Shown one piece after another: positions 3,139 through 20,598 of a stretch of 26,147 nucleotides of DNA. Numbering within the stretch: position 1 is the first letter of the stretch; every line of letters begins with the position of its first letter. The position numbers and the translations under genes are program-made. This DNA comes from Myxococcota bacterium (GTDB taxonomy: Bacteria > Myxococcota_A > Polyangia > Polyangiales > Sandaracinaceae). Location of the stretch: the NCBI GenBank assembly GCA_036149055.1, contig JAYZQJ010000163.1, positions 1 to 26,147 on the forward strand. Reading direction: 5' to 3'. Below the pieces are notes generated by a model. That model made no database searches, was not told where the DNA came from, and saw only the letters and a program-made list of their open reading frames with translations.

Positions 3139-4335
3139 TCAGGGGCCGGGGGAGGGTGGGGGGCCGGTGGGCACGAGGTGGAGGACGCGCCAGCTCCGGA
3201 CGACCTCGTCGTCGAGCAGGATGTCGACGCGCGCCTCCTCCACCACCGCGTGGTGAAGGAATCCGTCCACCCGCTCCGCCGCGACCAGCTCGAAGCACAG
3301 CCGGCCGCCTCGGGGCACGGACCGGTAGCGCTCCCCGTCGACCGGCGGCAGCCCGCAGCCCTCCGGCGCGCGACCGCTCGCGAGCCAGCTGGAGTCCCGG
3401 CTCCCCTCGTGCCGGATCCAGCCCTCCATCGCGGCCCGCTCGGCCACGTGCTCGAGCGCGTGCAGGGGCGGCGTCGCGCCGAGCTCCGGGTGATGCGCGA
3501 ACCAGAGCACCTCGTCGGCGAGCGGCTCGTCCGAGGCGTCCAGGGGATCGGTGCCCGCCGCGACCTCGATCCCGTCGGGGGCCCCGTCGTCGTCGAGGTC
3601 GCGGTTCAGGCGGCCGCCCGGCGGCTCGTCCGCGTCGAGCACCGCGTCCTCGTCGCTGTCGACGTCGAGGAAGTCCGGCTGCCCGTCGAAGTCGCTGTCG
3701 ACCGGGCGGGTCGCGAGGTCCGCGTCGCCGGCCTCGACCGCGTCCGGTACCCCGTCACCGTCACTGTCGAGGTCCACCCGCGCGAGCGCGCCGTCGCGGT
3801 CGGCGTCGACCCCGAGCCCGTAGAGGTCTCGGTCGTCGACGTCGGCGATGGTGTCGCCGTCGGAGTCGAGGTCCCGGTGGTCCGGGGTCCCGTCGCCGTC
3901 CGTGTCCACCGGCGGCGACGCATCCGAGCCCTCCTCCCGATCGAGGTACCGATCGTCGTCGTCGTCGCGGTCGATCCAGTCGCCCCACCCGTCGCCGTCG
4001 AGATCACCGACGCCATCGACCTCGTCCGGCAGCCCGTTGTCGTCGCTGTCGAGGTCGAGGTAGTCCGGGGTCTCGTCATAGTCCGAGTCCGCCGGCGGAG
4101 TCCGCAGGTCGTCGTCGCCCGCCTCTCGCGCGTCGGGGATGCCGTCGCCGTCCGAGTCGTCGTCGAGGTAGTCGGGCACGCCGTCCCCGTCGCTGTCCCG
4201 GCCCTCGGAGATCCCCTCGGTGCGGTCCCGGATGCCGTCGCCGTCGGTGTCGTCCCAGGCCCCCGCGTCGCCGATGTCGACGGAGCGGCCGCCGCAGGCG
4301 GTCAGGAGCAGGAGCGCCAGCGTGATCGCGCGCAT
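3139..4335 (-). CDS. Acidic lipoprotein with thrombospondin-type-3-like DxDGDG calcium-binding repeats, 398 aa
   Basis: ATG at 4335 gives signal peptide MRAITLALLLLTAC (lipobox LTAC). Many D-x-D-G-D-G-x-P-D repeats, including a duplicated DSDGDGxPDAxEAGDxDLxTxPxDSD unit. Confidence 0.85.
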   Translation of the reverse strand: MRAITLALLLLTACGGRSVDIGDAGAWDDTDGDGIRDRTEGISEGRDSDGDGVPDYLDDDSDGDGIPDAREAGDDDLRTPPADSDYDETPDYLDLDSDDNGLPDEVDGVGDLDGDGWGDWIDRDDDDDRYLDREEGSDASPPVDTDGDGTPDHRDLDSDGDTIADVDDRDLYGLGVDADRDGALARVDLDSDGDGVPDAVEAGDADLATRPVDSDFDGQPDFLDVDSDEDAVLDADEPPGGRLNRDLDDDGAPDGIEVAAGTDPLDASDEPLADEVLWFAHHPELGATPPLHALEHVAERAAMEGWIRHEGSRDSSWLASGRAPEGCGLPPVDGERYRSVPRGGRLCFELVAAERVDGFLHHAVVEEARVDILLDDEVVRSWRVLHLVPTGPPPSPGP

Positions 4336-4377
4336 GCGGGTCCGAGGACCGGGCGACCGAAACTGGCTCACATTCGG

Positions 4378-5019
4378 TCAGCCCGGAGCGGCGTGCATGA
4401 TGCCCTGGAGGTTGAAGTCCAGGAGCACCCGGGAGAGGTGGTCGAGGTCGACCTCGTCCTCCTCGAGGACGCGCTGCACGAGCTGCTTCACCGAGCCGAG
4501 GATGAGCCAGGCGACCGGCTCGGTGTCGAGGGGGCGGATGAAGCCGATGCGCTGGCCGTTGGCGAGCGACATGCTCAGCCAGTCGTGGAGCTGGGAGTAG
4601 AAGCCGTGCAGCTTCTCGTCGACCGCCTCGTCGATGCCGACCGCCTCGCGCAGGACGAACTTCGCCAGCGCGGGGTCCTCGCGGAAGCTGCCGAGCACGC
4701 TGCGCACGGTGGCGAGGATCTGGTCGCGGACCGGCGGCGCGCCCGGCTCGAGGTCGACGCCGATCATGTTCTCGTGGATGCGCTCGAGCAGCAGGTCGAG
4801 CAGCTCGTGGAAGATGGCGTTCTTCGAGTCGAAGTAGAGGTAGAAGGTGCCGCGCGCGATCGACGCCTCCTCGATGATGTCGGCCACGCGGGTCTGGTGG
4901 TAGCCCTTGGCGCTGAACACGCGCAGCGCCGCGTCGAGCACGGTGCGTCGACGCCGCTTGCGCTTCTGGGCCGCCCGCAGGCTCCGGCCGTCGAGCTCCT
5001 CGGTGGCGGTGGCGCTCAT
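4378..5019 (-). CDS. TetR/AcrR family transcriptional regulator, 213 aa
   Basis: HTH motif VLDAALRVFSAKGYHQTRVADIIEEASIARGTFYLYFDSK; ATG overlaps the upstream TGA (ATGA, 5019-5016). Confidence 0.95.
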   Translation of the reverse strand: MSATATEELDGRSLRAAQKRKRRRRTVLDAALRVFSAKGYHQTRVADIIEEASIARGTFYLYFDSKNAIFHELLDLLLERIHENMIGVDLEPGAPPVRDQILATVRSVLGSFREDPALAKFVLREAVGIDEAVDEKLHGFYSQLHDWLSMSLANGQRIGFIRPLDTEPVAWLILGSVKQLVQRVLEEDEVDLDHLSRVLLDFNLQGIMHAAPG

Positions 5020-5894
5020 CGGCGGCCCTCCCAGTAGTCGTTCACCCGCCGCGCCACGGAGGCCTGCACCCGGTCGGCGAGGGCGGGGATCTCGTCGTCG
5101 GTCAGGCCCGCCGACTCCACCGGCTCGTCGCACCAGACGGTGATCTCCTGGCCGGGGCGCAGCACGTAGCTGCCGGGGCGCATGAGGTCGAAGGTGCCGG
5201 TGACCGCGACCGGCACGATCGGGATCCCGAGGTCGCGCGCGATGTAGAAGATGCCCTTGCGGAAGGGCTTCACGTAGCCGGTGCGGGTGCGGCTGCCCTC
5301 GGGGAACGCGAGGATGGAGCGGCCCTCGGCGACCTCGCGGCCGATCTTCTCGCGGAGGTCCTCGGTCTGGTTCTTGGCGCCCTTCTTCACCGGGATGGTG
5401 CCGCGCTTCTTCATGAACCAGCCGTAGAACGGGTAGTCGAAGTGGCTCTCCAGCTCGAGGCCCTGCTTGAAGTGCGGGGTCGCGTTGTAGAGCATCACGT
5501 GGTCGAGGTGGTTCGTGTGGTTCTGCGCGAAGATGTAGGGCCGGTCGGGGTCGACCTTCGGGTGCACGACCGCGCGCCACTTGCAGCCGGTCAAGGCGAT
5601 CTGCCCCTTGCAGTAGACGCGGCCGAGGAGGTTCACCCGGTGGCTCGGCACCACGCTGTAGACCGCGGTCATCGCGCCGAGGCTCGGGACCAGCCAGCTG
5701 AGGCCGGCGCCCCAGAGCGCGGTGGAGACGAGCTTCTCGCGCAGGGTCGGCGCCTCGAAGGAGATCGAGGGCGCGCGCTCCTCGGGCGGCACCTCCTGGC
5801 GAGACGCGCGCCGGGTCGCGCGCGGCTGCGTCTCCGTGGGCCCGGTGTCGGCGGGCCGGTCGGTGTTCTGCTCGATCGAACGCTGCTGCATCAT
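5016..5894 (-). CDS. PlsC-family lysophospholipid acyltransferase, 292 aa
   Basis: HX4D motif NHTNHLD, FPEGSRT, PFRKGIF, PIVPV; N-terminal hydrophobic segment; ATGA overlap with the kinase stop. Confidence 0.93.
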   Translation of the reverse strand: MMQQRSIEQNTDRPADTGPTETQPRATRRASRQEVPPEERAPSISFEAPTLREKLVSTALWGAGLSWLVPSLGAMTAVYSVVPSHRVNLLGRVYCKGQIALTGCKWRAVVHPKVDPDRPYIFAQNHTNHLDHVMLYNATPHFKQGLELESHFDYPFYGWFMKKRGTIPVKKGAKNQTEDLREKIGREVAEGRSILAFPEGSRTRTGYVKPFRKGIFYIARDLGIPIVPVAVTGTFDLMRPGSYVLRPGQEITVWCDEPVESAGLTDDEIPALADRVQASVARRVNDYWEGRR

Positions 5895-6781
5895 GCGACC
5901 ACCTCCAGAGCGCCGGGCAGGATCTCCAGGCGCTCGAGCTTCAGCTTCATCACCTCGCCGTCGACCATCGCGTCCACGGCCTCGTCGAGCGACAGCTCGA
6001 CCGCTCGCGCGCGGCCCTGCTCCACCTCGGGACGCCGCACGTGCGTGCCCTGGAAGATGGACGGGAAGGCCCGCACGAAGGGAAGGCGCCCCATCTGCCC
6101 GATGCGGATGACGTCGAAGGCGCCATCGGTCGCGTCGGCCTCGGGGGCCATCATCATGGTGCCGCCGGTGTAGCGGCTGTTGGAGAACGAGAGGAGCACG
6201 CAGGGCCGCGCGTCCTCTTCGCCGCCGTCGACCCGGAGCGGGAACGACGGGTGCTTCAGCCGCGCCGCCGTGAGCAGCACCGCCGCCACGTACCCGGCCG
6301 CGCCCAGCGGCTTGAAGCGGCGGTTCGTCAGCCCGCCCGCCTCGGCGCTGAAGCCGACGCTGAGCAGGTTGATGAAGTGCAGCTCGCCGTCGGCGTGCAC
6401 CGCGCGCACCACGTCGCAGCGCCGGGTGACGCCCCGCTCGAGCGCCGCGAGCGCGTGCTCCGCCTTCGTGATCCCGAAGTCGCGGAGGAAGGAGTTGCCG
6501 GTGCCGAGCGGCAGCATGCCGAGCGTCGGCCGGTCCTCCTCGTCGTGCGGGAAGAGGCCGTTGACGATCTCGAAGCTGGTGCCGTCGCCGCCCACCGCGA
6601 GGAACTTCCGCTGACCCTTCGCCCACGCGTCGCGGGCGCGCTCGGTCGCCTCGCCGGCGCGCGAGGTGTGATGGACCTCGAGGTCCATCCCCGCGCGGCG
6701 CAGGCGCTCGAGCGCCGCCGGAGCGCGCTTGCCGCAGCGCCCGCCGCCGGCCGCCGGGTTGACGAGGGTCAGCCAGGTCAC
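5891..6781 (-). CDS. Diacylglycerol/sphingosine kinase family lipid kinase (DagK/YegS-like), 296 aa
   Basis: VNPAAGGG, VGGDGT, LPLGTGNSF, SNSRYTGG, VDGE; GTGA overlap with the upstream ligase stop. Confidence 0.93.
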   Translation of the reverse strand: MTWLTLVNPAAGGGRCGKRAPAALERLRRAGMDLEVHHTSRAGEATERARDAWAKGQRKFLAVGGDGTSFEIVNGLFPHDEEDRPTLGMLPLGTGNSFLRDFGITKAEHALAALERGVTRRCDVVRAVHADGELHFINLLSVGFSAEAGGLTNRRFKPLGAAGYVAAVLLTAARLKHPSFPLRVDGGEEDARPCVLLSFSNSRYTGGTMMMAPEADATDGAFDVIRIGQMGRLPFVRAFPSIFQGTHVRRPEVEQGRARAVELSLDEAVDAMVDGEVMKLKLERLEILPGALEVVA

Positions 6782-8505
6782 GAGAGGCGCTCCTCCTCGG
6801 GGGCCGCGGCCCGGAGCGACTCCGCCAGCAGCTGCCGCTTCACCTTCATGCTCGCGGTGCGCGGGAACGCCTCGTCGACGAAGACCAGGCCGCGGATCCG
6901 CTTGTGCTCGGGGAGGCGCCGGTTCTTCGCCGCGAGCTGGGCGCGGATCTCGCCGTCGCTCGCCGGCTCGGTGCCGTTGCCCTTCTTGCGCCGGACGACC
7001 GCCACCAGGCGCTCGTGACCCAGCCGCGCCTGCTCGGGCCAGAGGAAGCCGGAGGCGAAGACCGCGAGCTCCTCGACGGGCAGCGCCTCGAACGCGCCCT
7101 CGATGTCCTCCGGGTAGACGTTCTTGCCGCCCTCGGTGACGATCATGTTCTTGCTGCGCCCGACCAGGTGGAGGTGGTGCGCCGCGTCCATCCAGCCGAG
7201 GTCGCCGGTGCGGAGCCAGCCGTCCTCGGTGATCGCCTCGGCGGTCAGCTCCGGGTCGTCGAGGTAGCCGGTCATCAGGGTGCGGCCGCGGATCCAGACC
7301 TCGCCGACGCCGTCCGCGCCGGGCTCGTGGATGCGCACCTGCACGCCGGGCACCGGGCGGCCGACGCTGTCGCCGCGGAACGGCTTCAGGTCGTTGACGG
7401 TGGCCACGGTGCAGCACTCGGTGAGCCCGTAGCCGATCACCACCGGGAGGCCGAGGCGGTAGAACAGCTCGGCGCGATCGCGGTCGACGAAGGCGCCGCC
7501 GCAGAAGAGCACCTCGAGCTCGCCCCCGAACGCCTCGTGGATCGGCGAGAGCAGCGCGCGGCTGAGCTTCGGGGTGGGCTGCTTCGTGGTGAGCATCTCG
7601 TTCAGCCCGCCGATCACGCCGACCATGCGGCGCGCCCACGCGGGCTGCTGGAGCAGGCGCTCCTCGATGCTGCGCTCGAACGCCTCGAGCACCATCGGCA
7701 CCAGCGCCATGTGGGTGACGCCGTAGCTCTGCATCGTCGACTGCAGGAACTCGGGGCGGAGCGAGCGCTGGTGCACCACGGTGGCGCCGCAGCTGAAGGG
7801 GCCGACGAAGCCGACCATGAAGTCGATCGCGTGGTTGGTGGGCAGGATGGAGAAGGTCCGGTGCCCGACCCGCATCGGGAAGAGCGCCATCAGCGCCTTC
7901 AGCTGCTCGAGGTAGGCCTCGTGGCTGAGGACGCAGCCCTTGGGCCGGCCGCCGGTGCCCGAGGAGTAGACGATCGTCGCGGCGTCCTCGCGCGCGCGGG
8001 CCACCGGCGCCGGGGTCTCGCCGTCCGCGTCGAGCGCGTCCCAGTCGGTGTGAGCGAAGGCGTACTCCCCCTTGGCCTCGGTCACGAGCGCCGCCTCGAC
8101 GTCGAGCGCGCCGAAGCGCCGCGCGAGCCCGTGCTCGGTGATCAGCGCCTTCGGGCGGCAGTGCGCCATCAGCGCCTCCTGCTCGTCCGCCGAGAGCTTG
8201 TAGTCGAGGGGCACGAGCACCGCGCCGCGGGCGAAGACCGCGCAGGCCGCGAGGAGCCACCGGCTCTGGTTGCTCATCACGATCGCGACGCGGTCGCCCG
8301 CGCCGACGCCGCGCGCGGCGAGCCAGCGGGTCACCCGATCCGCCTCGCGCTTGGCGTCGAGGTAGGTGAGCCGGCGCGACTCCTTCTTGCGGTCGACCTC
8401 GATCAGCGCCGTCTCCGTCTTGAAGGTGACGAGCGCGTCCGCCAGCAGCTCGCCGAGCGAGCCGTAGCGGGTGGGGTCGATCATCTCGGGGTGGGGCGTC
8501 GCCAT
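6778..8505 (-). CDS. Long-chain acyl-CoA/acyl-ACP synthetase (AMP-binding, FadD-like), copy 1, 575 aa
   Basis: YSSGTGGRPKG, GYGLTE, WLRTGDLG, GRSKNMIVTEGGKNVYPEDIE, PRTASMKV. Confidence 0.95.
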   Translation of the reverse strand: MATPHPEMIDPTRYGSLGELLADALVTFKTETALIEVDRKKESRRLTYLDAKREADRVTRWLAARGVGAGDRVAIVMSNQSRWLLAACAVFARGAVLVPLDYKLSADEQEALMAHCRPKALITEHGLARRFGALDVEAALVTEAKGEYAFAHTDWDALDADGETPAPVARAREDAATIVYSSGTGGRPKGCVLSHEAYLEQLKALMALFPMRVGHRTFSILPTNHAIDFMVGFVGPFSCGATVVHQRSLRPEFLQSTMQSYGVTHMALVPMVLEAFERSIEERLLQQPAWARRMVGVIGGLNEMLTTKQPTPKLSRALLSPIHEAFGGELEVLFCGGAFVDRDRAELFYRLGLPVVIGYGLTECCTVATVNDLKPFRGDSVGRPVPGVQVRIHEPGADGVGEVWIRGRTLMTGYLDDPELTAEAITEDGWLRTGDLGWMDAAHHLHLVGRSKNMIVTEGGKNVYPEDIEGAFEALPVEELAVFASGFLWPEQARLGHERLVAVVRRKKGNGTEPASDGEIRAQLAAKNRRLPEHKRIRGLVFVDEAFPRTASMKVKRQLLAESLRAAAPEEERLS

Positions 8506-8508
8506 GGC

Positions 8509-8751
8509 TCAGATCCGGCTGGCGACCACGTCGGCGAGCTCGGCGAAGGTGCGCACGTCCTGCACCTCGTAGTCGGGGATCTCGACCCCGAACTTCTCCT
8601 CGAGCGCGGTCAGGAGGCTGAGCGCCTGCATCGAGTCGATGTCGAGCGCGTCGAACATGTCGGCGCTCGCGTCGAGCTCCGCGCGCTCCTTGCGGAAGCG
8701 CTCGGCGGCGAGGGTGAGGAGCTGATCGAGGACACGGCTCTCGTCGGACAT
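8509..8751 (-). CDS. Acyl carrier protein, 80 aa
   Basis: Small acidic protein with phosphopantetheine site LDIDSMQALSLLTALEEKFGVEIPD. Confidence 0.93.
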   Translation of the reverse strand: MSDESRVLDQLLTLAAERFRKERAELDASADMFDALDIDSMQALSLLTALEEKFGVEIPDYEVQDVRTFAELADVVASRI

Positions 8752-8759
8752 CGGGGACC

Positions 8760-9707
8760 TCAGTTCGGGGCCGCGGCCGCCTGGCGGCGCGGGAGGTAGG
8801 GCATCACGTCCTCCGAGGTCACGAAGGCGTCGAGCGCCTCCATCACCGCGGGGCTCGTGAGCAGGCGACAGAAGAGGGCCTTCTCCTCCGCGAGGCGCGC
8901 GGCGGGGAAGGGCTTGAGGAAGGGCTTGGCCGCGGCGACGGTGGCCGCGTCGAAGCGCTGGGTCTGGGCGGCGAGCTTGCGGGCCACGCCGAGCGCCTTG
9001 CCGTGGCCGACGAGCTGGGCGACGAGGCCGACCTCGTGGGCCCGGGCCGCGCCGAGGCTCCGTCCGCTGAGGAGCAGCTCGCGGACGAGCGCGTTTCCGA
9101 GGTCGCGCTCGAGGCGCGGCACCCCGCCGAAGCCGGGCACCAGGCCGAGCCGGAGCTCGGGGAAGGCGAAGCGCGCCGTCTTGTCGGCGACGATGACGTC
9201 GGCGGTGAGCGCCAGCTCGAAGCCGCCGCCGAAGCAGACGCCGTGCACCGCCGCGATGACCGGGACGGGCGCGGTGTCGAGGGTGTCGAAGACCGCGTGG
9301 ATGCGGTCGAGGAACGCGCGCACGCCCCAGACCTTGGCCGCCCGGAGCGGGTCGAGGCCGTAGTCGCCGCGGGTCAGGCCCCGCACGGTCGCGAGGCCGG
9401 CGCGCGCGGCTCGCCGCTTGCCGTCGAAGAGGCGCCGCGCGTGCTCGGGCAGGGCGCGCACGTCGCGGGCCGAGGCGAGCCCCTGGTGCAGCTCCCAGAG
9501 GTTGGCGCCGGCGCTGAAGCCCTTGGGGTTCTCGCTGTGGATCAGGACCGCGCGGTGGCCGCCCGCCCGGACGAGCGACGCCACCCGCTCGAGCTCGGTG
9601 AGCATGTCGAGCCCGATCTCGTTGAGCGGGTCGGCGTGCAGGGCCACCTCGAGCACCCCGTCGGTCACCTGCGTGCTCAGGCACGCGCCGGTCCAGGCGG
9701 CGGTCAC
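8760..9707 (-). CDS. Enoyl-CoA hydratase/isomerase (crotonase) family protein, 315 aa, with an internal insertion
   Basis: FSAGANL, PVIAAVHGVCFGGGFELAL and FAFPELRLGLVPGFGG (both catalytic Glu positions present); GTGA overlap at 9707-9704. Confidence 0.92.
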   Translation of the reverse strand: MTAAWTGACLSTQVTDGVLEVALHADPLNEIGLDMLTELERVASLVRAGGHRAVLIHSENPKGFSAGANLWELHQGLASARDVRALPEHARRLFDGKRRAARAGLATVRGLTRGDYGLDPLRAAKVWGVRAFLDRIHAVFDTLDTAPVPVIAAVHGVCFGGGFELALTADVIVADKTARFAFPELRLGLVPGFGGVPRLERDLGNALVRELLLSGRSLGAARAHEVGLVAQLVGHGKALGVARKLAAQTQRFDAATVAAAKPFLKPFPAARLAEEKALFCRLLTSPAVMEALDAFVTSEDVMPYLPRRQAAAAPN

Positions 9708-11329
9708 GCGTAGAGCCTCTCGATGGCGTCGGCGTAGTGCGCCTCGATCGCCTTGCGGCGGAGCTTCTGGTTGGCGGTCAGCAGCCCGTTCTCGACGCTG
9801 AACGGCTCGGGGCTGAGGTGGAACGAGCGGATGCGCCGGTAGTGCGGCAGCTCCTCGTTGATGCGATCGATCGCCTTGGCCGCCTCCTCGCGCGAGGCGT
9901 CGCCGGTGAGGATGGCGGTGAGGTAGGGGCGGCCGTGGCCGATGACGACCGCCTGGGTCACCCCGGTCACGCTCTCGAGGATGCGCTGCTCGATCGGCTC
10001 GGGCGCGACGTTGTGGCCGCTCTCCGGCACGAGGATGTTCTTCACCCGGCCGACGATCACCAGCCGGCCGTCGCGATCGATGCGGCCCTGGTCGCCGGTG
10101 CGGAACCAGCCGTCCTGGAACGCGTCCTCGGTGGCCTCGGGCTTGTTCCAGTAGCCGCTGAAGATGTTGGGCCCGCGGACCTGCAGCTCGCTGCCCTCGC
10201 CGAGGCGCATCTCGACGCCGTCGATGGCGTAGCCGACCTTGCCGGGCGCGGCGGCGCGCGGGCGGTCCATGGTCACGATCGCGGTGGTCTCGGTCAGCCC
10301 GTAGACCTGGTAGACCGGCAGGCCGAGCAGCTCGAACCACGCCTGGGTCTCCTCGGCCAGCGGCGCCGAGCCGCAGATCAGGCACTCGAGGCGCTCTCCG
10401 ATCTGCGCCTTGATCTTGGCGAAGACGGTGCGCCGCGCGGCGGCGAGCAGGAGCTTCTGCGGGAGCGTCGCGCGGCCGCGGCGGGCGTCGCGCCAGGCCT
10501 CGATGGACGCGTCGTAGAGCTTGCGGACCGGCAGCCCCTGGCTGGCGATCTTCTTCTCCACGCCGTCCTTCACGCGCTCGAGCAGGGCCGGCACGTTGAG
10601 GAACCACTCGGGCTGCGCGGTCTTCAGCTCCTCCGGGAGGTTGGTGAGGTCGGTCGAGACCATCACGCCGTTCTCCCGGTAGAGGTTGCTCCAGAGCACG
10701 AAGCGGCTGCCGGCGAAGCAGAAGGGCAGGTAGTGGAAGACGCGGTCGCGCCCGCCCGGCCGGCCCATGAGCTCGGTGAGCCGCCGGTCGATCGTGTCCA
10801 GCATGAACCGGACGTTGCCCGCGGTGGTCATCACGCCCTTGGGCTCGCCGCTGGTGCCCGACGTGTAGATGATCGTGACCGGGTCGTCGTCCGGCCGCGC
10901 CGCCGGCGGCTCGTGCACCGCCTCGCCCGCGAAGAGCGCCTCGAAGGTCATCACCGGCGCCTCGGCCCACGCCTTCGTCACGGCCTCGGCCAGCGCGTCG
11001 TCCGCGCAGACCACGAGGGTCGCGCCGGCGTCCTGCATCATCAGGACGAGCTCCTCCTCGGCCTGCCGCGCGTACATCGGCACGACGATCGCGCCCTCGG
11101 CGAGCATCGCGAGGTCGGCGGCGACCCACTTCGCCGAGTTGGGCGCGAGCAGCACCACCCGGTCGCCGGGGCTCACGCCGCGCTCGCGCAGCGCGCCGCG
11201 GGCCTGCGCGATCAGCTCGGCCAGCCGGCCGCCGTGGCTGCGCTCGAGCCGCTCGCCGTGCACCTCGGTGACGAAGGGGCGGCTCGGGTTCCGCTTCAGG
11301 TTCGCGAAGAACGTGTCGACGAAGCTCAT
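9704..11329 (-). CDS. AMP-dependent acyl-CoA/acyl-ACP synthetase, copy 2, 541 aa
   Basis: YTSGTSGEPKG, VYGLTE, WFRTGDQG, GRVKNILV, ENGLLTANQKLRR; ATG at 11329 with a GGGAGG Shine-Dalgarno upstream. Confidence 0.95.
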   Translation of the reverse strand: MSFVDTFFANLKRNPSRPFVTEVHGERLERSHGGRLAELIAQARGALRERGVSPGDRVVLLAPNSAKWVAADLAMLAEGAIVVPMYARQAEEELVLMMQDAGATLVVCADDALAEAVTKAWAEAPVMTFEALFAGEAVHEPPAARPDDDPVTIIYTSGTSGEPKGVMTTAGNVRFMLDTIDRRLTELMGRPGGRDRVFHYLPFCFAGSRFVLWSNLYRENGVMVSTDLTNLPEELKTAQPEWFLNVPALLERVKDGVEKKIASQGLPVRKLYDASIEAWRDARRGRATLPQKLLLAAARRTVFAKIKAQIGERLECLICGSAPLAEETQAWFELLGLPVYQVYGLTETTAIVTMDRPRAAAPGKVGYAIDGVEMRLGEGSELQVRGPNIFSGYWNKPEATEDAFQDGWFRTGDQGRIDRDGRLVIVGRVKNILVPESGHNVAPEPIEQRILESVTGVTQAVVIGHGRPYLTAILTGDASREEAAKAIDRINEELPHYRRIRSFHLSPEPFSVENGLLTANQKLRRKAIEAHYADAIERLYA

Positions 11330-11343
11330 CGTGGTCCTCCCGC

Positions 11344-12837
11344 TCAGGCGCGGTAGCGATCGACGACCGCGGACGCGGTGGGGCCCAGCGGGGGCAGGTG
11401 CGCCCAGGGGTCGCCGCCCTCGCCGAGGCCGTCGGCGAAGGGGAAGTCGGGGTGGAAGCCGCGGACGTGGTCGACGAGGATCGCGCCCATCCGGCCCATG
11501 CGCTCGAGGTTGGCGACGACGCAGCGGCCGATGCCGTCCTTCACCGCCTGGCGGTCCGCGTCGACCCGCTGCATCGCGGCGAGGAGCTTCCGGTCGAGCT
11601 CGGGATCGTCGACCTCGAGGGCGAGCTCCGGCTGGCCGCGGTCCGCCATCAGGTTCCGGATCCGCTCGTCCATCGTCACGCCCACGCTCGGCACGAGGCC
11701 GGGCATCGAGCAGACGAGCGCGTGGTAGCGCGACGACACCACCATCGCGCAGCGCCGCAGGATCGCGACCATCTCGTACATCTCGTGCTCGTCGCTCACG
11801 AAGAGCGGCAGCGGGGCGGGCAGCATCTCGTTCATGCGCTCCGCCGCCCGGCGGTCGAGCTGCTCCATGCCGACCAGGATCGGGAAGCAGTCGGTCTCCC
11901 GCCGGTAGTCCGAGAGCGCGCCGGCGAGGGCGCGGAGGTAGCCGTCGAACGCGCGGTCCACGTCCTGACCGTGCTTGTGGAAGTAGACGCTCTTGTAGTG
12001 CGCGTCGTCGTAGGCGCCGCTCAGCCCGTTCCAGGCCGCCTTGAGCGGCTCGGGCTTCACCGGCCACCAGAAGGGGTTGATCGGGCAGAGGGCCACCACC
12101 GGCTGCTCGCCGTCCCAACCGGCCCGCTTCAGGAGCCGCTCGGCGCGCTCGGCGGGGGCGGCCTCGAAGGTCCAGGCGGTGTCGGTGCCGAGCCGCGTGG
12201 GCACGCCGAGCCGGTCGAGCACGTCGGTCGACTCCTCGTTGCGCGTGATCACGAGCGCGTCCTGGCAGTGCTTCTCGACGAGGCGCTTCAGCGAGTCGTC
12301 CATCGCGCCCGCCTCGCCGCCGTAGCCGACCGCGACCTTCTCCTCCGCCGCCGCGAGCCCGATCGCGCCGACCATCATCGTCGAGAGCGCGTTCGCGAAC
12401 TTGCTCTTGAACATCGAGCCCTCGCACGCGATCACGCCGTGCTGCTCGCGGACCGTGTCGTAGAGGAACTTGTGGAAGATCTGGGGGATGTGGAGCTGGC
12501 GGACGGTGCGGAAGTAGCCCTTGGTCAGCGCCGGATCGATCGTGCAGATCGACAGCTCGAGGTGCTCGTCGCCGAAGAGGTGGCGGAACTGACGCACCAT
12601 CTCCTCGACCCGCACGTCGGCGCCCGTGTTGCGGGTGCCGACGTAGCCGGCGAGCAGCAGCTTGAGCGGCTCGCCCGGACGCCAGCGCGGCATCGGGTCG
12701 GCCTCGTGGCGGGTGCGGGCCGCCTCGATCAGCCCGCTCATGCCGAGCTGGACCATGCGGTCCGGGTCGAGGCTGTCCTTGGCGAGGTCGAGCGCGCCCT
12801 TGGCGGCGCGGCCGATCAGTCTCATCGCGAAGCTCAT
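11344..12837 (-). CDS. Polysaccharide pyruvyl transferase (CsaB/WcaK-like, GT-B fold) family protein, 497 aa
   Basis: LLLAGYVGTRNTGAD (cf. GYYGxxNxGD), ITRNEES (cf. vRDxxS), GTDTAW (cf. xDPA), VVSSRYHALV (cf. gMRLHa); ATGA overlap at 12837-12834. Confidence 0.75.
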   Translation of the reverse strand: MSFAMRLIGRAAKGALDLAKDSLDPDRMVQLGMSGLIEAARTRHEADPMPRWRPGEPLKLLLAGYVGTRNTGADVRVEEMVRQFRHLFGDEHLELSICTIDPALTKGYFRTVRQLHIPQIFHKFLYDTVREQHGVIACEGSMFKSKFANALSTMMVGAIGLAAAEEKVAVGYGGEAGAMDDSLKRLVEKHCQDALVITRNEESTDVLDRLGVPTRLGTDTAWTFEAAPAERAERLLKRAGWDGEQPVVALCPINPFWWPVKPEPLKAAWNGLSGAYDDAHYKSVYFHKHGQDVDRAFDGYLRALAGALSDYRRETDCFPILVGMEQLDRRAAERMNEMLPAPLPLFVSDEHEMYEMVAILRRCAMVVSSRYHALVCSMPGLVPSVGVTMDERIRNLMADRGQPELALEVDDPELDRKLLAAMQRVDADRQAVKDGIGRCVVANLERMGRMGAILVDHVRGFHPDFPFADGLGEGGDPWAHLPPLGPTASAVVDRYRA

Positions 12838-13982
12838 TCCGCGGCCTCCGGGAGCTTGGACGGCCGCGCGGGGAGCGGCGCGTAGGGGTACTCGAAGCCG
12901 ACCGACTTCGACCAGCGGTAGAGGTCGACGCCGTAGTCGGTGAAGCGCGCGGGCGCCTCGCCGAGCTCGGTGACCACCCGCGTGTTGTCGAAGACGACGT
13001 CGTTGGTGAAGTAGGGCAAGAAGACCTTGATCAGCGAGGCGTAGAGGCTCACCGGCCCGCGCGGACCGTTGGCGAGCCCGCCAGCGAGGGAGTCGAAGGC
13101 CCCGTAGAGCCTCGGCACGAGCTTGGGCGTGCGGATGCCGCCCTCGCGGAACGCCCGCTCGACCTCCCGCACCGTCGCCGCGCTCGTCCCCGCGCTGAGC
13201 TGGTAGCAGTCGTGGGCAACGTCGTCCTTGAGGTGCAGCTTCGCGATCGAGGGGCCGACGAAGCTGGCGGGCACGAAGTCGAGGCGCGTGTCGGGGTGGC
13301 AGGGCACCGCCGGCGCGTCGAGCATCCAGCAGAGGATGCGCACCATGTCGAACTGCGTCGTCTGCGGGAAGCGGTGATCGCCCATCACCGTCGGGGGCCG
13401 CAGGATGGTCTTCGGCACGTCGGGCAGCAGCTCGCGGAACATGTGCTCGGCGAACTTCTTGGTGCGGGCGTAGGGGTCGTAGTCGCTCAGCGACCAGTCG
13501 ATCGCCTCGTCCTCCTTCACCACCTGGTGCTCGCGCTTGCCGGCGACGGCGGTGGTGGAGACGAAGGAGAAGCGGCGCAGGCCGCCGCGCCGCTCGGCGA
13601 GCCAGCGGGTGAGCTGGGCGACGCTGAGCGAGCCGCGGAGGTTCGCGTTGAAGCAGGCCTTGGCGCTCTTGCGGTTCAGGCTGGCCGCGATGTGGAGCAC
13701 GCTGTCGCACTCCTCGGCCACCCGGGCGCGCGCGTCGTCCGACATGCCGAGCTGGGGCGACGAGAGATCGCCGGGCACGAAGACCACGCGGTCGAGGAAG
13801 GCGTAGAACTCCTCCGGCGCGAGGTGGAGCTGGAGCGCCTTCCAGAGCTTGGCCGTGCCCTCCTCGGCGTCCTTGGCGCGCGTCAGCAGGAAGAGGCGCC
13901 CCGCCTCGGGCCGCTGGCGCAGCTCGTCGAGCACGTAGGAGCCGAGGTAGCCGGTCCCGCCGGTGATGAAGATGCCGCTCAC
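12834..13982 (-). CDS. Extended SDR / NAD_binding_4 (thioester-reductase-like) oxidoreductase, 382 aa
   Basis: ITGGTGYLG, GDLSSPQLG, HIAASLN, FVSTTAV, catalytic YARTK, LRPPTVMG, DFVP; GTGA overlap at 13982-13979. Confidence 0.9.
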   Translation of the reverse strand: MSGIFITGGTGYLGSYVLDELRQRPEAGRLFLLTRAKDAEEGTAKLWKALQLHLAPEEFYAFLDRVVFVPGDLSSPQLGMSDDARARVAEECDSVLHIAASLNRKSAKACFNANLRGSLSVAQLTRWLAERRGGLRRFSFVSTTAVAGKREHQVVKEDEAIDWSLSDYDPYARTKKFAEHMFRELLPDVPKTILRPPTVMGDHRFPQTTQFDMVRILCWMLDAPAVPCHPDTRLDFVPASFVGPSIAKLHLKDDVAHDCYQLSAGTSAATVREVERAFREGGIRTPKLVPRLYGAFDSLAGGLANGPRGPVSLYASLIKVFLPYFTNDVVFDNTRVVTELGEAPARFTDYGVDLYRWSKSVGFEYPYAPLPARPSKLPEAAE

Positions 13983-15622
13983 TCCGCGCCTCCGAGCTCG
14001 GCCGAGGTGGTGGTGGGGGTCGGGGCCGGGAGCGCCGCCGCGACCGACGGCGGGTCGCCGCCGAGATCGAAGCCGACGTCGTCCGGCACCTCCTTGCCGC
14101 GGATGAGCGGCAACGACCAGGCGTCGAGCCCCGGGATCTCGACGTCCATCCAGTAGTGACGCCAGTCGAGCGTCTCGATGTCCCAGCCGAAGCGAGCGCG
14201 ATCCTCCTCGCTCAGCTCCGCGGTCCGGGCGCGCACGTGGTGCGTCTCGAACCGGTAGTCGAAGTCGTGGATGAAGGGCTGATAGACGTGCCACATCTGC
14301 TCGATGCTCTTGAGCAGCATCGAGGTCTTGTTGAGCTTGAGGCTCGCGTCGCGCGCCTTCTCCTGCCACTGCTCGCGGAGCCCCTCGTCGAGCGCCGCCG
14401 GCAGCTTCTTGGCGTCGACCTTGCGCAGCCGGTCGCGCAGCCAGCGGGTCGCCTTCTGCGCCGCCGGCACGAAGACGCTGCGGTCGGCGCCGTGCTCGAG
14501 CGTGGTCGAGTCCATGTGGGTCAGCAGCGCGCGCTCGAGCGGCGAGATCCCGCTCGGCACGTAGCCCTTGCGAACCTTCAGCGCCGTCAGATCGAGCGCG
14601 CGGTCGAAGGTGAAGCGGTTGGTGTCGCCGCTCGCGAGCTGCCAGACCTCCGGCGCCCGGCCCTCGAGCGCGTCGGCCAGCGCGAGCGTCATGCCGCGGG
14701 CCACCGTGTCCACCGGCACCACGTCGAAGCAGCTCTCGGCGCGCATCGGCACCTTCCAGGCGAAGCCGCTGCACATCCAGACGATGGGGCCGCTGGTGTT
14801 GATGCCCTCGTTCCACCCGGGGAAGGGGTAGCTCCGGGCGCACTCGACGATGCTCGGCCGGACGAGGGTCAGGTCGAGGTCGTCCCGCTGGGTGAGCGCG
14901 TGCTCGGCGAGGCCCTTCGAGTAGGTGTAGAGGTTGGGCCAGCCGAGGGACTTCGCGCGGCGGGTGCCGACCTCGATGCGGCCGCGCCGGGCGGCGGGGC
15001 GCTTGCGGCCGCCCTCGCGCTCGTCGATCGCGTCGCAGGCGCTGTCGATCGCGAGCAGCTCGGCGTCGACGTCGAAGCGGGTGCCGTTGGGCGAGACGCC
15101 GGGGGTGACCCGCTCGGGGATCGCGCCGTCGATCTCGCCGGCGACGAAGCAGGTGCTGACGTGCACCAGCCGCTTGCTGGGGATGCGCGCCGCGACGTCG
15201 GCCGCGTGCCGGGCGCCCCGCACGTTCACCTCTACCGCCATGCGCGGGTCGGGCGCGAAGTCGGTGAGGCCGGCGCAGTGGACCACCGCGTCGAGGCGCG
15301 GGGCGAGCTGGGCGAGCACGTGGGGCGGGATGCCCATCAGCGGCTCGGCGGCGTCGCCCTCGATGACCTCGATCTTGCTCTGCACGAGCTTCAGGAGCTC
15401 GTCGCCGTGCTTCTCGCGCAGGGGCCGCAGCGCGGGCGAGCTCTCGAAGATCCGCCGCACCCGGGCGGCCGCGCTCTCGGTCCGGCGCCCGCGCACCAGC
15501 AGGGTCAGCTTGCCGACCTCGGGCAGGTGGTCGAGCAGGAAGCCGACCCACACCTTGCCGAGGAAGCCGGTGAACCCGGTCACCAGCACGTGGCGACCCT
15601 TCAGCGTGTCGGAGATGGGCAA
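13979..15622 (-). CDS. Alcohol-forming fatty acyl-CoA/ACP reductase (FAR, male-sterility type), ~547 aa
   Basis: VTGFTGFLGKV, HCAGLTDF, HVSTCFVAG, GWPNLYTYSKGLAE, RPSIVE...PFPGWNEG, DVVPVDTV, C-terminal F.WDIETLDWRHY. Start taken as TTG at 15622 behind AAGGGAG, 2 nt after the HAD stop. Confidence 0.9.
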   Translation of the reverse strand: MPISDTLKGRHVLVTGFTGFLGKVWVGFLLDHLPEVGKLTLLVRGRRTESAAARVRRIFESSPALRPLREKHGDELLKLVQSKIEVIEGDAAEPLMGIPPHVLAQLAPRLDAVVHCAGLTDFAPDPRMAVEVNVRGARHAADVAARIPSKRLVHVSTCFVAGEIDGAIPERVTPGVSPNGTRFDVDAELLAIDSACDAIDEREGGRKRPAARRGRIEVGTRRAKSLGWPNLYTYSKGLAEHALTQRDDLDLTLVRPSIVECARSYPFPGWNEGINTSGPIVWMCSGFAWKVPMRAESCFDVVPVDTVARGMTLALADALEGRAPEVWQLASGDTNRFTFDRALDLTALKVRKGYVPSGISPLERALLTHMDSTTLEHGADRSVFVPAAQKATRWLRDRLRKVDAKKLPAALDEGLREQWQEKARDASLKLNKTSMLLKSIEQMWHVYQPFIHDFDYRFETHHVRARTAELSEEDRARFGWDIETLDWRHYWMDVEIPGLDAWSLPLIRGKEVPDDVGFDLGGDPPSVAAALPAPTPTTTSAELGGAE

Positions 15623-15624
15623 CT

Positions 15625-16305
15625 TCAGTGACTCCCTTCGACGACCGGCCAGTCCAGGTCGCGCGCCATGCGGCGCAGCTCTCGATCGGGGGTGACGGCG
15701 CAGGGCAGGGCGACGGCGCCGAGCAGCACCGAGTCCTCCTTGCCGCTGCCGTACGCGCAGGCGCCCCGCAGGTCGACGCCGAGCTCGGCGAGGCGGCCCA
15801 TCAGCGGGCGGCCGCCGAGGGCCGGGCCGAGGACCGGCGGGCGCAGCTCCCCGGTGGCCCGCGCGTGACCGTCGAGCTCCATCGCGTTGGCGATGACGTC
15901 GTCGAAGCCGAGGTGGGCGGCGATCGGCCTCGCGATCACGTCGAGGTTGTCGCTCAGCAGCACCAGGCGCTGGCCCTGATCGCGGCACCGCTCGACCAGC
16001 TCGACCCCGACCGGGTTCAGCGCCGGGCGGAGGTGCTCGTCGGCGTAGATCTCCCCGAGCACCACCAGGCGGTCCTCGGTCATGCCCTCGAGCATCGACC
16101 AGGCGAGCTTGGTCGCCCGACCCGGATCGCGGAGCGCCAGCGGGCCGGCGAGGGCCAGGCTGGAGAGCCCGAGCACGCGGGCGCGGACCCGGCGCGCGTT
16201 CATGGCCATCCAGGCGGCCGCGGTGAGGGTCGGCCTCGGGCTCAGCGGCCCCTCCAGCCGGAACAGCGCGGCTGGGCGCGCGCTTCTGGTGATCGCGTCG
16301 GTCAT
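15625..16305 (-). CDS. HAD-IB (SerB-like) superfamily protein with degenerate catalytic motifs, 226 aa
   Basis: Fold signatures LVLLSDNLDVIARPIAAHLGFDDVIAN, ATGEL, AYGSGKEDSVLLGAV and AVTPDRELRRMARDLDWPV; motif I reads FRLEGPL rather than FDxDGTL. Confidence 0.85.
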   Translation of the reverse strand: MTDAITRSARPAALFRLEGPLSPRPTLTAAAWMAMNARRVRARVLGLSSLALAGPLALRDPGRATKLAWSMLEGMTEDRLVVLGEIYADEHLRPALNPVGVELVERCRDQGQRLVLLSDNLDVIARPIAAHLGFDDVIANAMELDGHARATGELRPPVLGPALGGRPLMGRLAELGVDLRGACAYGSGKEDSVLLGAVALPCAVTPDRELRRMARDLDWPVVEGSH

Positions 16306-16340: not shown

Positions 16341-16369
16341 GGCATAGCAGAGGTAGACTGACGTGTCAG
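16341..16369 (-). promoter_or_regulatory. Putative sigma70-type promoter of the lipid operon
   Basis: Minus strand: CTGACA (16369-16364), 17-bp spacer ending in TGC, TATGCC (16346-16341); 35 nt upstream of the HAD ATG; A-tract upstream of the -35. Confidence 0.55.
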
Positions 16370-16370
16370 T
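16357..16370. promoter_or_regulatory. Palindromic operator ACTGAC-GT-GTCAGT, a candidate TetR site
   Basis: Perfect 6-bp inverted repeat with a 2-bp spacer, relatively AT-rich for this window, overlapping the predicted -35. Confidence 0.6.
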
Positions 16371-16626: not shown

Positions 16627-16923
16627 ATGTCCAACAAGCTTTTCGTCGGCAGCCTGAGCTGGAACACGGACGACCACGGCCTCGCGGCCGCGTTCGAGCG
16701 TTTCGGTGAGATCACGGACGCCAAGGTCATCACGGACCGCGACTCCGGTCGCAGCCGTGGCTTCGGCTTCGTCACCTTTGCCGACCCGAGCGCCGCCCAG
16801 AACGCGGTGCGCGAGATGAACGGCGTCGAGATCGACGGCCGCTCGGTCAACGTCGACATCGCGCAGGAGCGCGGTGGCGGCGGCGGTGGTCGCCGCGGTG
16901 GCGGCGGCGGCGGTCGCTGGTAG
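16627..16923 (+). CDS. RRM (RNP-1) RNA-binding protein with Gly/Arg-rich tail, 98 aa
   Basis: RNP2 KLFVGSL, RNP1 RGFGFVTF, tail RGGGGGGRRGGGGGGRW. Confidence 0.97.
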   Translation: MSNKLFVGSLSWNTDDHGLAAAFERFGEITDAKVITDRDSGRSRGFGFVTFADPSAAQNAVREMNGVEIDGRSVNVDIAQERGGGGGGRRGGGGGGRW

Positions 16924-16950: not shown

Positions 16951-16988
16951 AGAGCCGGCGTCCCTCGGGGCGCCGGCTCTCTTCGTTT
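16951..16988. terminator. Intrinsic terminator hairpin, probably bidirectional
   Basis: AGAGCCGGCG-TCCCTCGGGG-CGCCGGCTCT followed by CTTCGTTT and preceded by A-rich ACAGAACAGA; sits between convergent genes. Confidence 0.8.
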
Positions 16989-16998
16989 AAAGGCTCGA

Positions 16999-17424
16999 TC
17001 AACGCTGGCAGTGCTGATCGATCACCGTCTCGAGCTGCCCGCAGGCGAACGCGCAGTCGAACTGGCTCGGGTCCCCGGCGCAGCGCTCCCGGCAGCGGAC
17101 CTCCGCCGTCGAGGCGCCGCGGTCGCAGTAGCCCGGCGGCACCTCGGCGATCTGCAGGCAGCGCCGCAGCATCATCTGGCCGCCGCTCGCGCAGGAGATG
17201 TCGCGCCCGCAGGCCCGGACCTCCTCGTGCGCCGCGTCGTGGCACTCCGCGATCGGCCGCCCCTGATAGGCCTCCGCCCGGGCCACGCCCTGGCGCGCGG
17301 TCTCGGCGGTCTGCTGCCCCCACTCGAGGACCAGCAGCCCCATCACGCAGCAGCCGGCCAGCCCGAGGAGCGCGAGGACGCCGAGCACGATGAAGAGGGT
17401 CTTCTTCGAAGAGCCTTCGCTCAT
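16999..17424 (-). CDS. Small membrane-anchored Cys-rich hypothetical protein, 141 aa
   Basis: KK followed by hydrophobic TLFIVLGVLALLGLAGCCVMGLLVL, then a domain with 10 Cys residues. Confidence 0.8.
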   Translation of the reverse strand: MSEGSSKKTLFIVLGVLALLGLAGCCVMGLLVLEWGQQTAETARQGVARAEAYQGRPIAECHDAAHEEVRACGRDISCASGGQMMLRRCLQIAEVPPGYCDRGASTAEVRCRERCAGDPSQFDCAFACGQLETVIDQHCQR

Positions 17425-17430
17425 CGCGCT

Positions 17431-17459
17431 CGGTTACCCCGCGCTCCCGCGGCGGTCAA
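17431..17459 (-). promoter_or_regulatory. Putative leaderless promoter TTGACC-N17-TAACCG-N6-ATG
   Basis: Near-consensus -35, exact 17-bp spacer, ATG 6 nt after the -10, no Shine-Dalgarno; the -10 lacks the final T. Confidence 0.4.
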
Positions 17460-17466
17460 CGCGGGG

Positions 17467-20451
<2,985 letters not shown>

Positions 20452-20584
20452 GTGTCGAGCTTCCTCCAGGCTCCTTCTACGACGACCGCGCCCCAGCCTT
20501 CCTGCGTTTCAGGCGACCGCGAGCCAGCCGCGTTTCACGGCGTCGGAGAGGCTGGAAGCCAACAGTCACGGCGAAAAAAGGGCG

Positions 20585-20590
20585 TATACT
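20585..20590 (+). promoter_or_regulatory. Putative -10 box TATACT, 8 nt upstream of the ATG at 20599
   Basis: Near-consensus -10 preceded by an A-tract; no Shine-Dalgarno; no clear -35. Confidence 0.45.
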
Positions 20591-20598
20591 CTACATGC

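Follow-up and report, generated by a model that had tools for sequence, protein, structure and literature searches.

An elb-related lipid operon of Myxococcota and Acidobacteriota with a pyruvyl-transferase-like enzyme and a proposed route to ether glycerolipids

Described ether-lipid systems and the operon in Sandaracinaceae

In Myxococcus xanthus, ether lipids are made by the products of the elbA-E genes (MIBiG BGC0000871; PMC9131029). In canonical elb loci, the HAD gene elbB stands first and is accompanied by elbC, elbE and elbD, of which the latter encodes a fusion of a fatty acyl reductase (FAR), a ligase, a carrier and an acyltransferase. According to the above study, the formation of the ether bond is still open, and ElbC has been described as a protein of unknown function. 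Another route, encoded by MXAN_1676-1674, corresponds to the eukaryotic pathway of FAR, GNPAT and the alkyl-dihydroxyacetone-phosphate (DHAP) synthase AGPS. Here, we describe an operon of eleven genes on a contig of 26,147 nt from a myxococcotal bacterium of the family Sandaracinaceae (JAYZQJ010000163.1, assembly GCA_036149055.1; the whole stretch is called the window). The operon is widespread and represents a sister system of elb that has apparently not been described before. Its central enzymes differ from those of elb and include a GT-B transferase resembling pyruvyltransferases.

The eleven genes all lie on the minus strand (16305-4378). In the order from the HAD gene to tetR, the junctions measure 2, -4, -4, 14, -4, 8, 3, -4, -4 and -4 nt, and the six overlaps all read ATGA or GTGA. 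An earlier note made from the sequence alone had proposed a coupled operon on one strand; all of its ten junctions were borne out and each of its gene labels is backed by Pfam and NCBIfam. The G+C content at third codon positions (GC3) of the eleven frames is 0.95-0.99, and none of the proteins contains a strong hydrophobic segment. Since the gene order is kept in relatives from two phyla at 30-90% identity, the arrangement is not due to chance. The genes almost certainly form a co-regulated lipid operon.

For comparison, loci homologous to elb were used (L127-L138, L146 and L169-L176), with canonical elb loci fetched from FAR matches in long frames. Both elb and the operon start with a HAD gene and occur in the same two phyla. 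Their FARs fall into one clade and their adenylating enzymes are related; moreover, each system has a carrier, an acyltransferase of the PlsC family and a further NAD(P)-dependent reductase. Unlike elb, the operon lacks elbC, its parts are unfused, the HAD protein lacks the D-x-D motif and the second reductase is of the R-domain type and not an ElbE. Moreover, it adds a phosphoenolpyruvate (PEP)-transferase-like enzyme, a crotonase, a kinase, a further ligase (ligase 1) and a TetR regulator.

In the genome of the window, which is 96% complete, the best match to ElbB is the HAD protein of the operon (15625-16305; PF12710; 33% identity), and the best matches to ElbD are the FAR (13979-15622, TTG start; 34%) and ligase 2 (6778-8505; PF00501; 31-33%). 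There was no match to ElbC in this genome. The genes of the operon are separate, and no fused ElbD was found in this genome or in five other operon genomes. The FAR groups with the FAR of ElbD to the exclusion of FAR-GNPAT fusions (SH-aLRT 99, quick tree), and ligase 2 groups with the ElbD ligase domain (96/93), a placement that a larger quick tree leaves open. Thus, the HAD protein, the FAR and ligase 2 are counterparts of elb proteins, and for these three parts the earlier view of the operon as a split ElbD holds. For the ACP, PlsC and reductase 2, such a relationship is not supported. The profile of the acyl carrier protein (ACP) scores at most 10 bits on the ElbD carrier domain. The best tree does not place PlsC as sister to the ElbD acyltransferase, although such a placement is compatible with the data (AU p 0.17). 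Reductase 2, which is 24-27% identical to ElbE, falls into a separate clade. The claim that all four ElbD parts are present as stand-alone genes is therefore not supported as a statement about descent. Nor does the second ligase belong to the core: ligase 1 (9704-11329; long-chain acyl-CoA-ligase type) groups with ordinary ligases of the genome (100/99) and no orthologue exists in nine of the ten genomes whose locus lacks it. Ligase 1 is accessory and dispensable. Fusions of a ligase, in part with a carrier, and an acyltransferase without FAR were also seen in three acidobacterial operon genomes (L177-L179); they fall outside the ElbD ligase clade.

The motif D-x-D-G-T of four ElbB sequences is replaced by R16-x-E18 in 76 of 78 HAD sequences. 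The label HAD-like is thus right as to the family, but the nucleophile has been lost, and the sequence suggests that the protein is probably a non-catalytic partner of the FAR. In the FAR (PF07993, PF03015; the C-terminal Pfam match of 33.5 bits is slightly below the cut-off of 35.4), Y232 and K236 are invariant (87/87); it is a single-copy enzyme and no second FAR was found in the genome. Reductase 2 (12834-13982) is of the thioester-reductase type; its best solved relative is the R domain of MxaA (E 1.6e-24), and the triad T143, Y171 and K175 is present in 90/90 sequences. The same strict conservation was observed for E164 and E184 of the crotonase (8760-9707; PF00378; 80/80), S40 of the dedicated ACP (8509-8751; PF00550; 69/69), the GGDG motif of the YegS/DgkB-type lipid kinase (5891-6781; TIGR00147 above cut-off; 61/61) and H126 and D131 (HxxxxD) of PlsC (5016-5894; PF01553; 49/49), which is absent from some loci. 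Searches of solved structures gave nothing at 1e-35 for ligase 2 and generic family matches only for the crotonase and the kinase. Ligase 2 is predicted to load the ACP, which is probably its function.

Recently, elb-like clusters have been reported from sponge Poribacteria and Acidobacteriota (bioRxiv 10.64898/2026.06.23.733905). In some of them elbD is encoded in two frames, with a single cut between the reductase and the A domain, and they share with the operon described here neighbours such as acyltransferases, diacylglycerol kinases, CDP-alcohol transferases and FabH. The word "pyruvyl" is absent from the main text of the preprint, whose clades 1-2 may overlap with our operon. We also considered that "elb" clusters reported in subdivision-4 acidobacteria are this operon. 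However, eight ElbC loci fetched from that class are canonical elbB-C-D loci, and the report therefore more likely concerns real elb.

Distribution of the operon and mutual exclusion with ElbC

The transferase was matched in 49 of 61 relatives and in 30 of the 31 within the family. It was also matched in 571 of 600 candidate stretches of species genomes; 80 of these matches were listed, and among the matches listed the nearest named relatives carry the label Sandaracinaceae. From 100 loci (L021-L120), five were dropped as duplicate or near-empty and 34 were too short, leaving 61 long loci for counting. Eight core genes (HAD, FAR, reductase 2, transferase, crotonase, ACP, ligase 2 and kinase) are present in 48/61 long loci and the full set of eleven in 14/61, with ligase 1 in 49, PlsC in 42 and TetR in 24. 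The gene order is constant across the loci of both phyla, which answers the question of the earlier note whether the genes are co-conserved elsewhere. Where the operon is broken up, the crotonase gene is found on another contig (5/5 genomes searched) and the kinase gene is kept outside of the locus; a kinase orthologue was present in 4/4 operon genomes searched and was not found in the elb-type genome G147.

The operon is carried by named organisms such as Nannocystis exedens DSM 71 (L087) and Paraliomyxa miuraensis (L077), and Sandaracinus amylolyticus encodes the transferase. Single members of the transferase family were named from Schlesneria paludicola and Endozoicomonas atrinae; a search for loci of the Schlesneria type returned only two ordinary operon loci, which are 49-50% identical to the Schlesneria sequence. 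Metagenome-assembled genomes (MAGs) with the labels Acidobacteriaceae and Korobacteraceae also contain the operon (L103, L105). In acidobacterial loci the HAD and FAR genes are fused. Clostridia, Acidimicrobiia and Verrucomicrobiia had to be rejected as carriers because the record titles in question sit on genomes within the acidobacterial class samples. No match to the transferase was found in plasmids, and a search of the ESM Atlas gave clusters of the same family only. In the full-text literature that we searched, which mostly excludes subscription journals, there was no description of this gene set. One genome (G231) contains a reduced second copy on contig C21 (L134), which consists of genes for the HAD protein, a short FAR, the transferase, the crotonase, the ACP, ligase 2 and a fatty acid desaturase and is devoid of reductase 2, kinase and PlsC; its transferase is 73% identical to that of a FAR-transferase fusion (P0242).

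Some neighbours of the operon recur. A FabH gene is inserted in 11 loci, and a CDP-alcohol phosphotransferase gene, which is phosphatidylinositol-phosphate-synthase-like, lies on the opposite strand in 13 loci. Moreover, a gene for a Tes-like radical SAM enzyme is located next to or near the operon in five loci (L082, L096, L112, L071 and L049), of which the first three have it 129, 261 and 513 nt upstream, respectively. These neighbours point to glycerolipids.

For the comparison with elb, transferase and ElbC orthologues were counted in identical genome samples. Among 201 Myxococcota, the transferase was found in 21, ElbC in 63, both in one and neither in 118 genomes, while 6.6 genomes with both would be expected under independence; this and the other expected values ignore kinship, and the centre genomes had been picked as carriers. 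In the acidobacterial class of G258 (101 genomes), the transferase occurs in 31 (one partial), ElbC in 32, neither in 38 and both in none (expected 9.8), and in the class of G254 (151 genomes) the respective numbers are 52, 25, 74 and none (expected 8.6). Likewise, none of the 61 relatives has both, with 49 containing the transferase and four ElbC. Weak LarA matches were left out of the ElbC counts in the 201 sample (10) and the 101 sample (18). The unpublished genomes G023, G434, G458 and G450 are part of these counts. In one family (f48), the sole genome lacking the transferase, G147, has elb instead, and G122 has both. The elb cluster has independently been listed as missing in Sandaracinus and Nannocystis (PMC12766979), and both genera carry the transferase. 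The operon seems to stand in for the ether-lipid genes known from myxobacteria. The near-exclusion adds to the kinship with elb seen in the FAR and ligase 2 trees and in the HAD protein, and it supports the suggestion of the earlier note that the operon uses a linking chemistry different from that of elb. The ElbD of G122, whose two systems are L130 and L140, groups with those of families f17 and f18, which suggests a transfer.

The GT-B transferase and a proposed route from phosphoenolpyruvate

The predicted model of the transferase (11344-12837) has a GT-B fold (pLDDT 94). A sequence search of solved structures with the enzyme gave nothing. In the structural ranking, PimA comes first (Z 21.5, rmsd 3.4, 326 aligned residues) and the pyruvyltransferase Pvg1p is 23rd (Z 17.1, rmsd 3.5, 256 aligned). 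Profile (HH) alignments link it to a Bacillus CsaB (98.3% probability, 330 columns) and to E. coli WcaK (91.9%), and its scores on the family models TIGR03609 (CsaB; 73 bits) and WcaK (30 bits) stay below the cut-offs of 213 and 399. With CsaB, WcaK and Pvg1p (PF04230), the enzyme shares the GT-B fold and the motifs NxGD, RxxxS, D and RxH as well as a downstream basic residue. Docking and mutagenesis have assigned R148, R306, H308, K328, S88 and R207 to the PEP site of CsaB (PMC10435577). By motif and spacing, the first five correspond to R199, R370, H372, R392 and S141, which are invariant in 108/108 sequences. The match of K/R261 (105/108; 61/85 divergent sequences) to R207 is based on spacing alone.

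Unlike CsaB, WcaK and Pvg1p, the enzyme has Glu139 in place of glycine, an aromatic insert at about 251-290 and N-terminal helices, and it is encoded among lipid genes and not among polysaccharide genes. Glu139 is present in 108/108 sequences and conserved as E or D in 84/85 divergent ones, and eight comparators have glycine. In one cluster, four of the five members have the transferase fused to a FAR, and one case each of a transferase-ligase and a ligase-ACP-transferase fusion was seen. Both the gene context and the fusions suggest that the acceptor is a lipid. The enzyme is a candidate PEP:fatty-alcohol enolpyruvyl transferase, and the odds slightly favour a reaction in which a fatty alcohol or aldehyde is joined to a PEP carbon. 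A further protein of 1348 aa (P0241; one sequence on four contigs) combines the transferase with an ACP and an adenylation domain into which a PilZ match is inserted.

AroA is an enolpyruvyl transferase with the same type of reaction as MurA, and the fold of both enzymes differs from GT-B. MurA forms an enolpyruvyl ether from an alcohol and PEP (PMC10435577), which is the reaction proposed here, but the acceptors of MurA and AroA are water-soluble. We tentatively propose that the operon builds an ether glycerolipid whose three-carbon backbone is derived from PEP; as a complete sequence of steps, this route is possible and its correctness somewhat less probable than its failure. The route was chosen as the shortest one that uses every core enzyme in the reaction type of its family. 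The FAR would reduce acyl-CoA or acyl-ACP to a fatty alcohol, and ligase 1, where present, would help to supply acyl-CoA. The GT-B enzyme, with the family-specific Glu139 as an extra acid/base, would attach the alcohol to C2 of PEP and set phosphate free. The resulting alkyl enolpyruvyl ether (2-alkoxyacrylate) would be put onto the ACP by ligase 2. Hydration by the crotonase would yield 2-O-alkylglyceryl-ACP, and a four-electron reduction by reductase 2 would release 2-O-alkylglycerol. The latter could be phosphorylated by the kinase and acylated by PlsC to enter phospholipid synthesis. The route does without a phosphatase step, which fits the dead HAD protein, and it calls for a kinase, since a free diol is left at the end of the backbone synthesis. 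2-O-monoalkyl glycerols are known from bacteria (PMC5552659).

Several observations weigh against the proposed route. The GT-B fold does not single out pyruvyltransferases, as PimA ranks above Pvg1p, and to our knowledge no GT-B enolpyruvyl transferase has been described. The tested members of the family that are described in PMC10435577 make ketals on sugars. We found no biochemical or lipid data on the named carriers in the literature. The transferase family has a member in S. paludicola (WP_010586167.1), which groups with acidobacterial sequences, but the organism is scored as ether-negative in Table S21 of PMC13159169, the column being identified from its header. The same table lists eight of nine subdivision-1 acidobacteria and Chloracidobacterium thermophilum as ether-negative, while MAGs from related families and the 52 genomes of the class of G254 contain the operon, although these are not matched strains. 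Ethers made by Elb are described as 1-O-alkyl, and PlsC would have to acylate the primary hydroxyl of a 2-O-alkyl product, which is an unusual position. The ElbD ligase domain has been confirmed in vitro to be of the acyl-CoA-synthetase type, and ligase 2 may therefore simply load a fatty acid. Finally, relatedness among the genomes inflates the exclusion with ElbC, which could also mean that a single ancestral locus gave rise to two systems making different products; moreover, weaker matches of the LarA family (27-38% identity), not counted as ElbC, occur in 12 of the operon genomes in the 101 sample.

The main rival is a product in which an acid-labile enol ether or ketal links pyruvate to a fatty alcohol, a diol or a lipid head group and which is not a stable alkylglycerol. 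Ketal transfer is the known reaction of the family, and acid hydrolysis would return the fatty alcohol and pyruvate, so such a lipid would escape ether analyses and account for the negative score of S. paludicola. The reduced copy of G231, which lacks reductase 2, kinase and PlsC, also fits it. However, it gives no clear role to the hydratase, the R-type reductase and the kinase, all of which are strictly kept, and it accounts less well for the exclusion with elb; we regard this alternative as rather unlikely. It is improbable that the crotonase adds the fatty alcohol, and not water, to an acryloyl thioester on a backbone from PEP or glycerate. The resulting 1-O-alkyl- or 1,2-di-O-alkylglycerol would have the regiochemistry of elb and give usual jobs to PlsC and to the kinase, which would act on diradylglycerol, and PlsC is indeed limited to 42 of the 61 long loci. 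Diethers could also feed Tes-type tetraether synthesis, for which the Tes-like gene directly upstream in L082, L096 and L112 would speak, but its match of 320 bits is below the cut-off of 450 and the three loci may go back to one event. Moreover, both hydratase glutamates are kept and a 2-phosphate would require a phosphatase, yet the HAD protein is dead. We know of no crotonase that forms an intermolecular ether.

The other alternatives concern the donor, the product or the partner of the operon. The top structural matches are glycosyltransferases and UDP-GlcNAc epimerases, and the GT-B enzyme might accordingly transfer a glycosyl or other group from a nucleotide donor to give an alkyl glycoside or glycolipid. 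This is quite improbable, given that the sequence is closest to CsaB and WcaK, that the PEP-site residues are kept and that sugar-nucleotide genes do not recur among the operon neighbours. A FAR and an acyltransferase would be enough to make fatty alcohols, which would not register as ethers, or wax-type neutral lipids, with the kinase and PlsC recycling glycerolipids. There is little chance that only such lipids are formed, because the transferase, the crotonase and the dedicated ACP would not be needed although few other parts are conserved as tightly, and neither would a FAR-transferase fusion. Lastly, an alkyl-DHAP synthase encoded elsewhere in the genome might receive the alcohol and acyl-DHAP from the operon, similar to the route of animals and of MXAN_1676. 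The statement of the earlier note that the window lacks a FAD oxidase is correct for the 20 window proteins scanned, but the genome encodes two unlinked AGPS-like FAD oxidases, C133:36384-38042 (HHHGVG) and C219:33683-35284 (HHHAVG), with 31-32% identity to myxobacterial AGPS. Both lack an adjoining FAR gene, and only two of ten other operon genomes have a near full-length AGPS match. Thus, although a FAR-made fatty alcohol would be the alkyl donor in either case, this explanation is the least plausible; the operon FAR also lies outside the FAR-GNPAT clade.

If the proposed PEP route is correct, for which the same tentative judgement holds, it would be a further ether-lipid route, in which the ether bond is formed first and the glycerol backbone is then built from PEP on a carrier, and it would involve a GT-B enolpyruvyl transferase. 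The operon would replace elb in Sandaracinaceae, Nannocystaceae and many Acidobacteriota, and in soils and seas it may supply 2-O-alkyl glycerols, or di-O-alkyl glycerols if a second alcohol is added. It is present in about a third of the sampled genomes of two acidobacterial classes, and many of the bacterial alkylglycerols that serve as biomarkers in the environment are of open origin. The two systems share FAR, ligase and HAD, and ElbC is swapped for transferase, hydratase, reductase and kinase, which points at the bond-forming step in both. ElbC scores above the cut-off of NF052592 (e.g. L135:2474-4084), a model of the LarA family of NPN-dependent hydroxyacid isomerases (LarAH14/15/16). 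This match suggests that the elb route passes through a 2-hydroxy acid. A tested LarAH15 is a gluconate 2-epimerase (PMC11770544), and no activity was seen for a LarAH14 (PMC7583248). By analogy, ElbC would act on a three-carbon acid intermediate in elb. Should the product not be an ether of glycerol, the coupling of a PEP transferase with a FAR would still be new lipid chemistry. Since the operon is unfused, its proteins lack a strong hydrophobic segment and it is present in a cultured strain (N. exedens DSM 71), the steps could be assayed separately.

Operator, expression data and flanking genes

The TetR regulator (4378-5019, minus strand), whose nearest NCBIfam model is of the FadR type with a score below the cut-off, was seen in myxococcotal loci and not in acidobacterial loci. 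A palindromic operator of 14 bp with the core TGAC-N2-GTCA is located at 16357-16370, about 50 nt 5' of the HAD gene. The exact core precedes the HAD gene in 24 of the 27 loci showing a tetR gene and in two of the 47 not showing one, both of which end short of the tetR position; the background in the genome is 0.0015 per 280 nt. Judging from these sequences, the palindrome is probably bound by the TetR of the operon, which would thereby repress the operon and its own synthesis. A scan for sigma-70 promoters found none. In a seawater metatranscriptome, contigs of the RNA library cover the operon at 11-14x, but the flank at 17013-17500 is also covered at 14.5x. DNA carry-over is therefore possible and the coverage is uninformative on transcription.

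A gene for a bacterial TSP3-repeat protein with a lipoprotein-like N-terminus lies 6 nt 3' of tetR (3139-4371, minus strand). It was rejected as a member of the operon because it does not recur after tetR in the relatives. On the other side, a gene for an RRM RNA-binding protein (16627-16923, plus strand) is divergent from the operon and followed by a terminator-like hairpin at 16951-16980. This gene shows a very high contig depth in RNA runs, which in part comes from other organisms. Further away, the window encodes a cysteine-rich repeat protein (PF11617) with a lamin-tail domain (17467-20451, minus strand) and a TPR-like protein of 1644 aa (20452-25386, plus strand).

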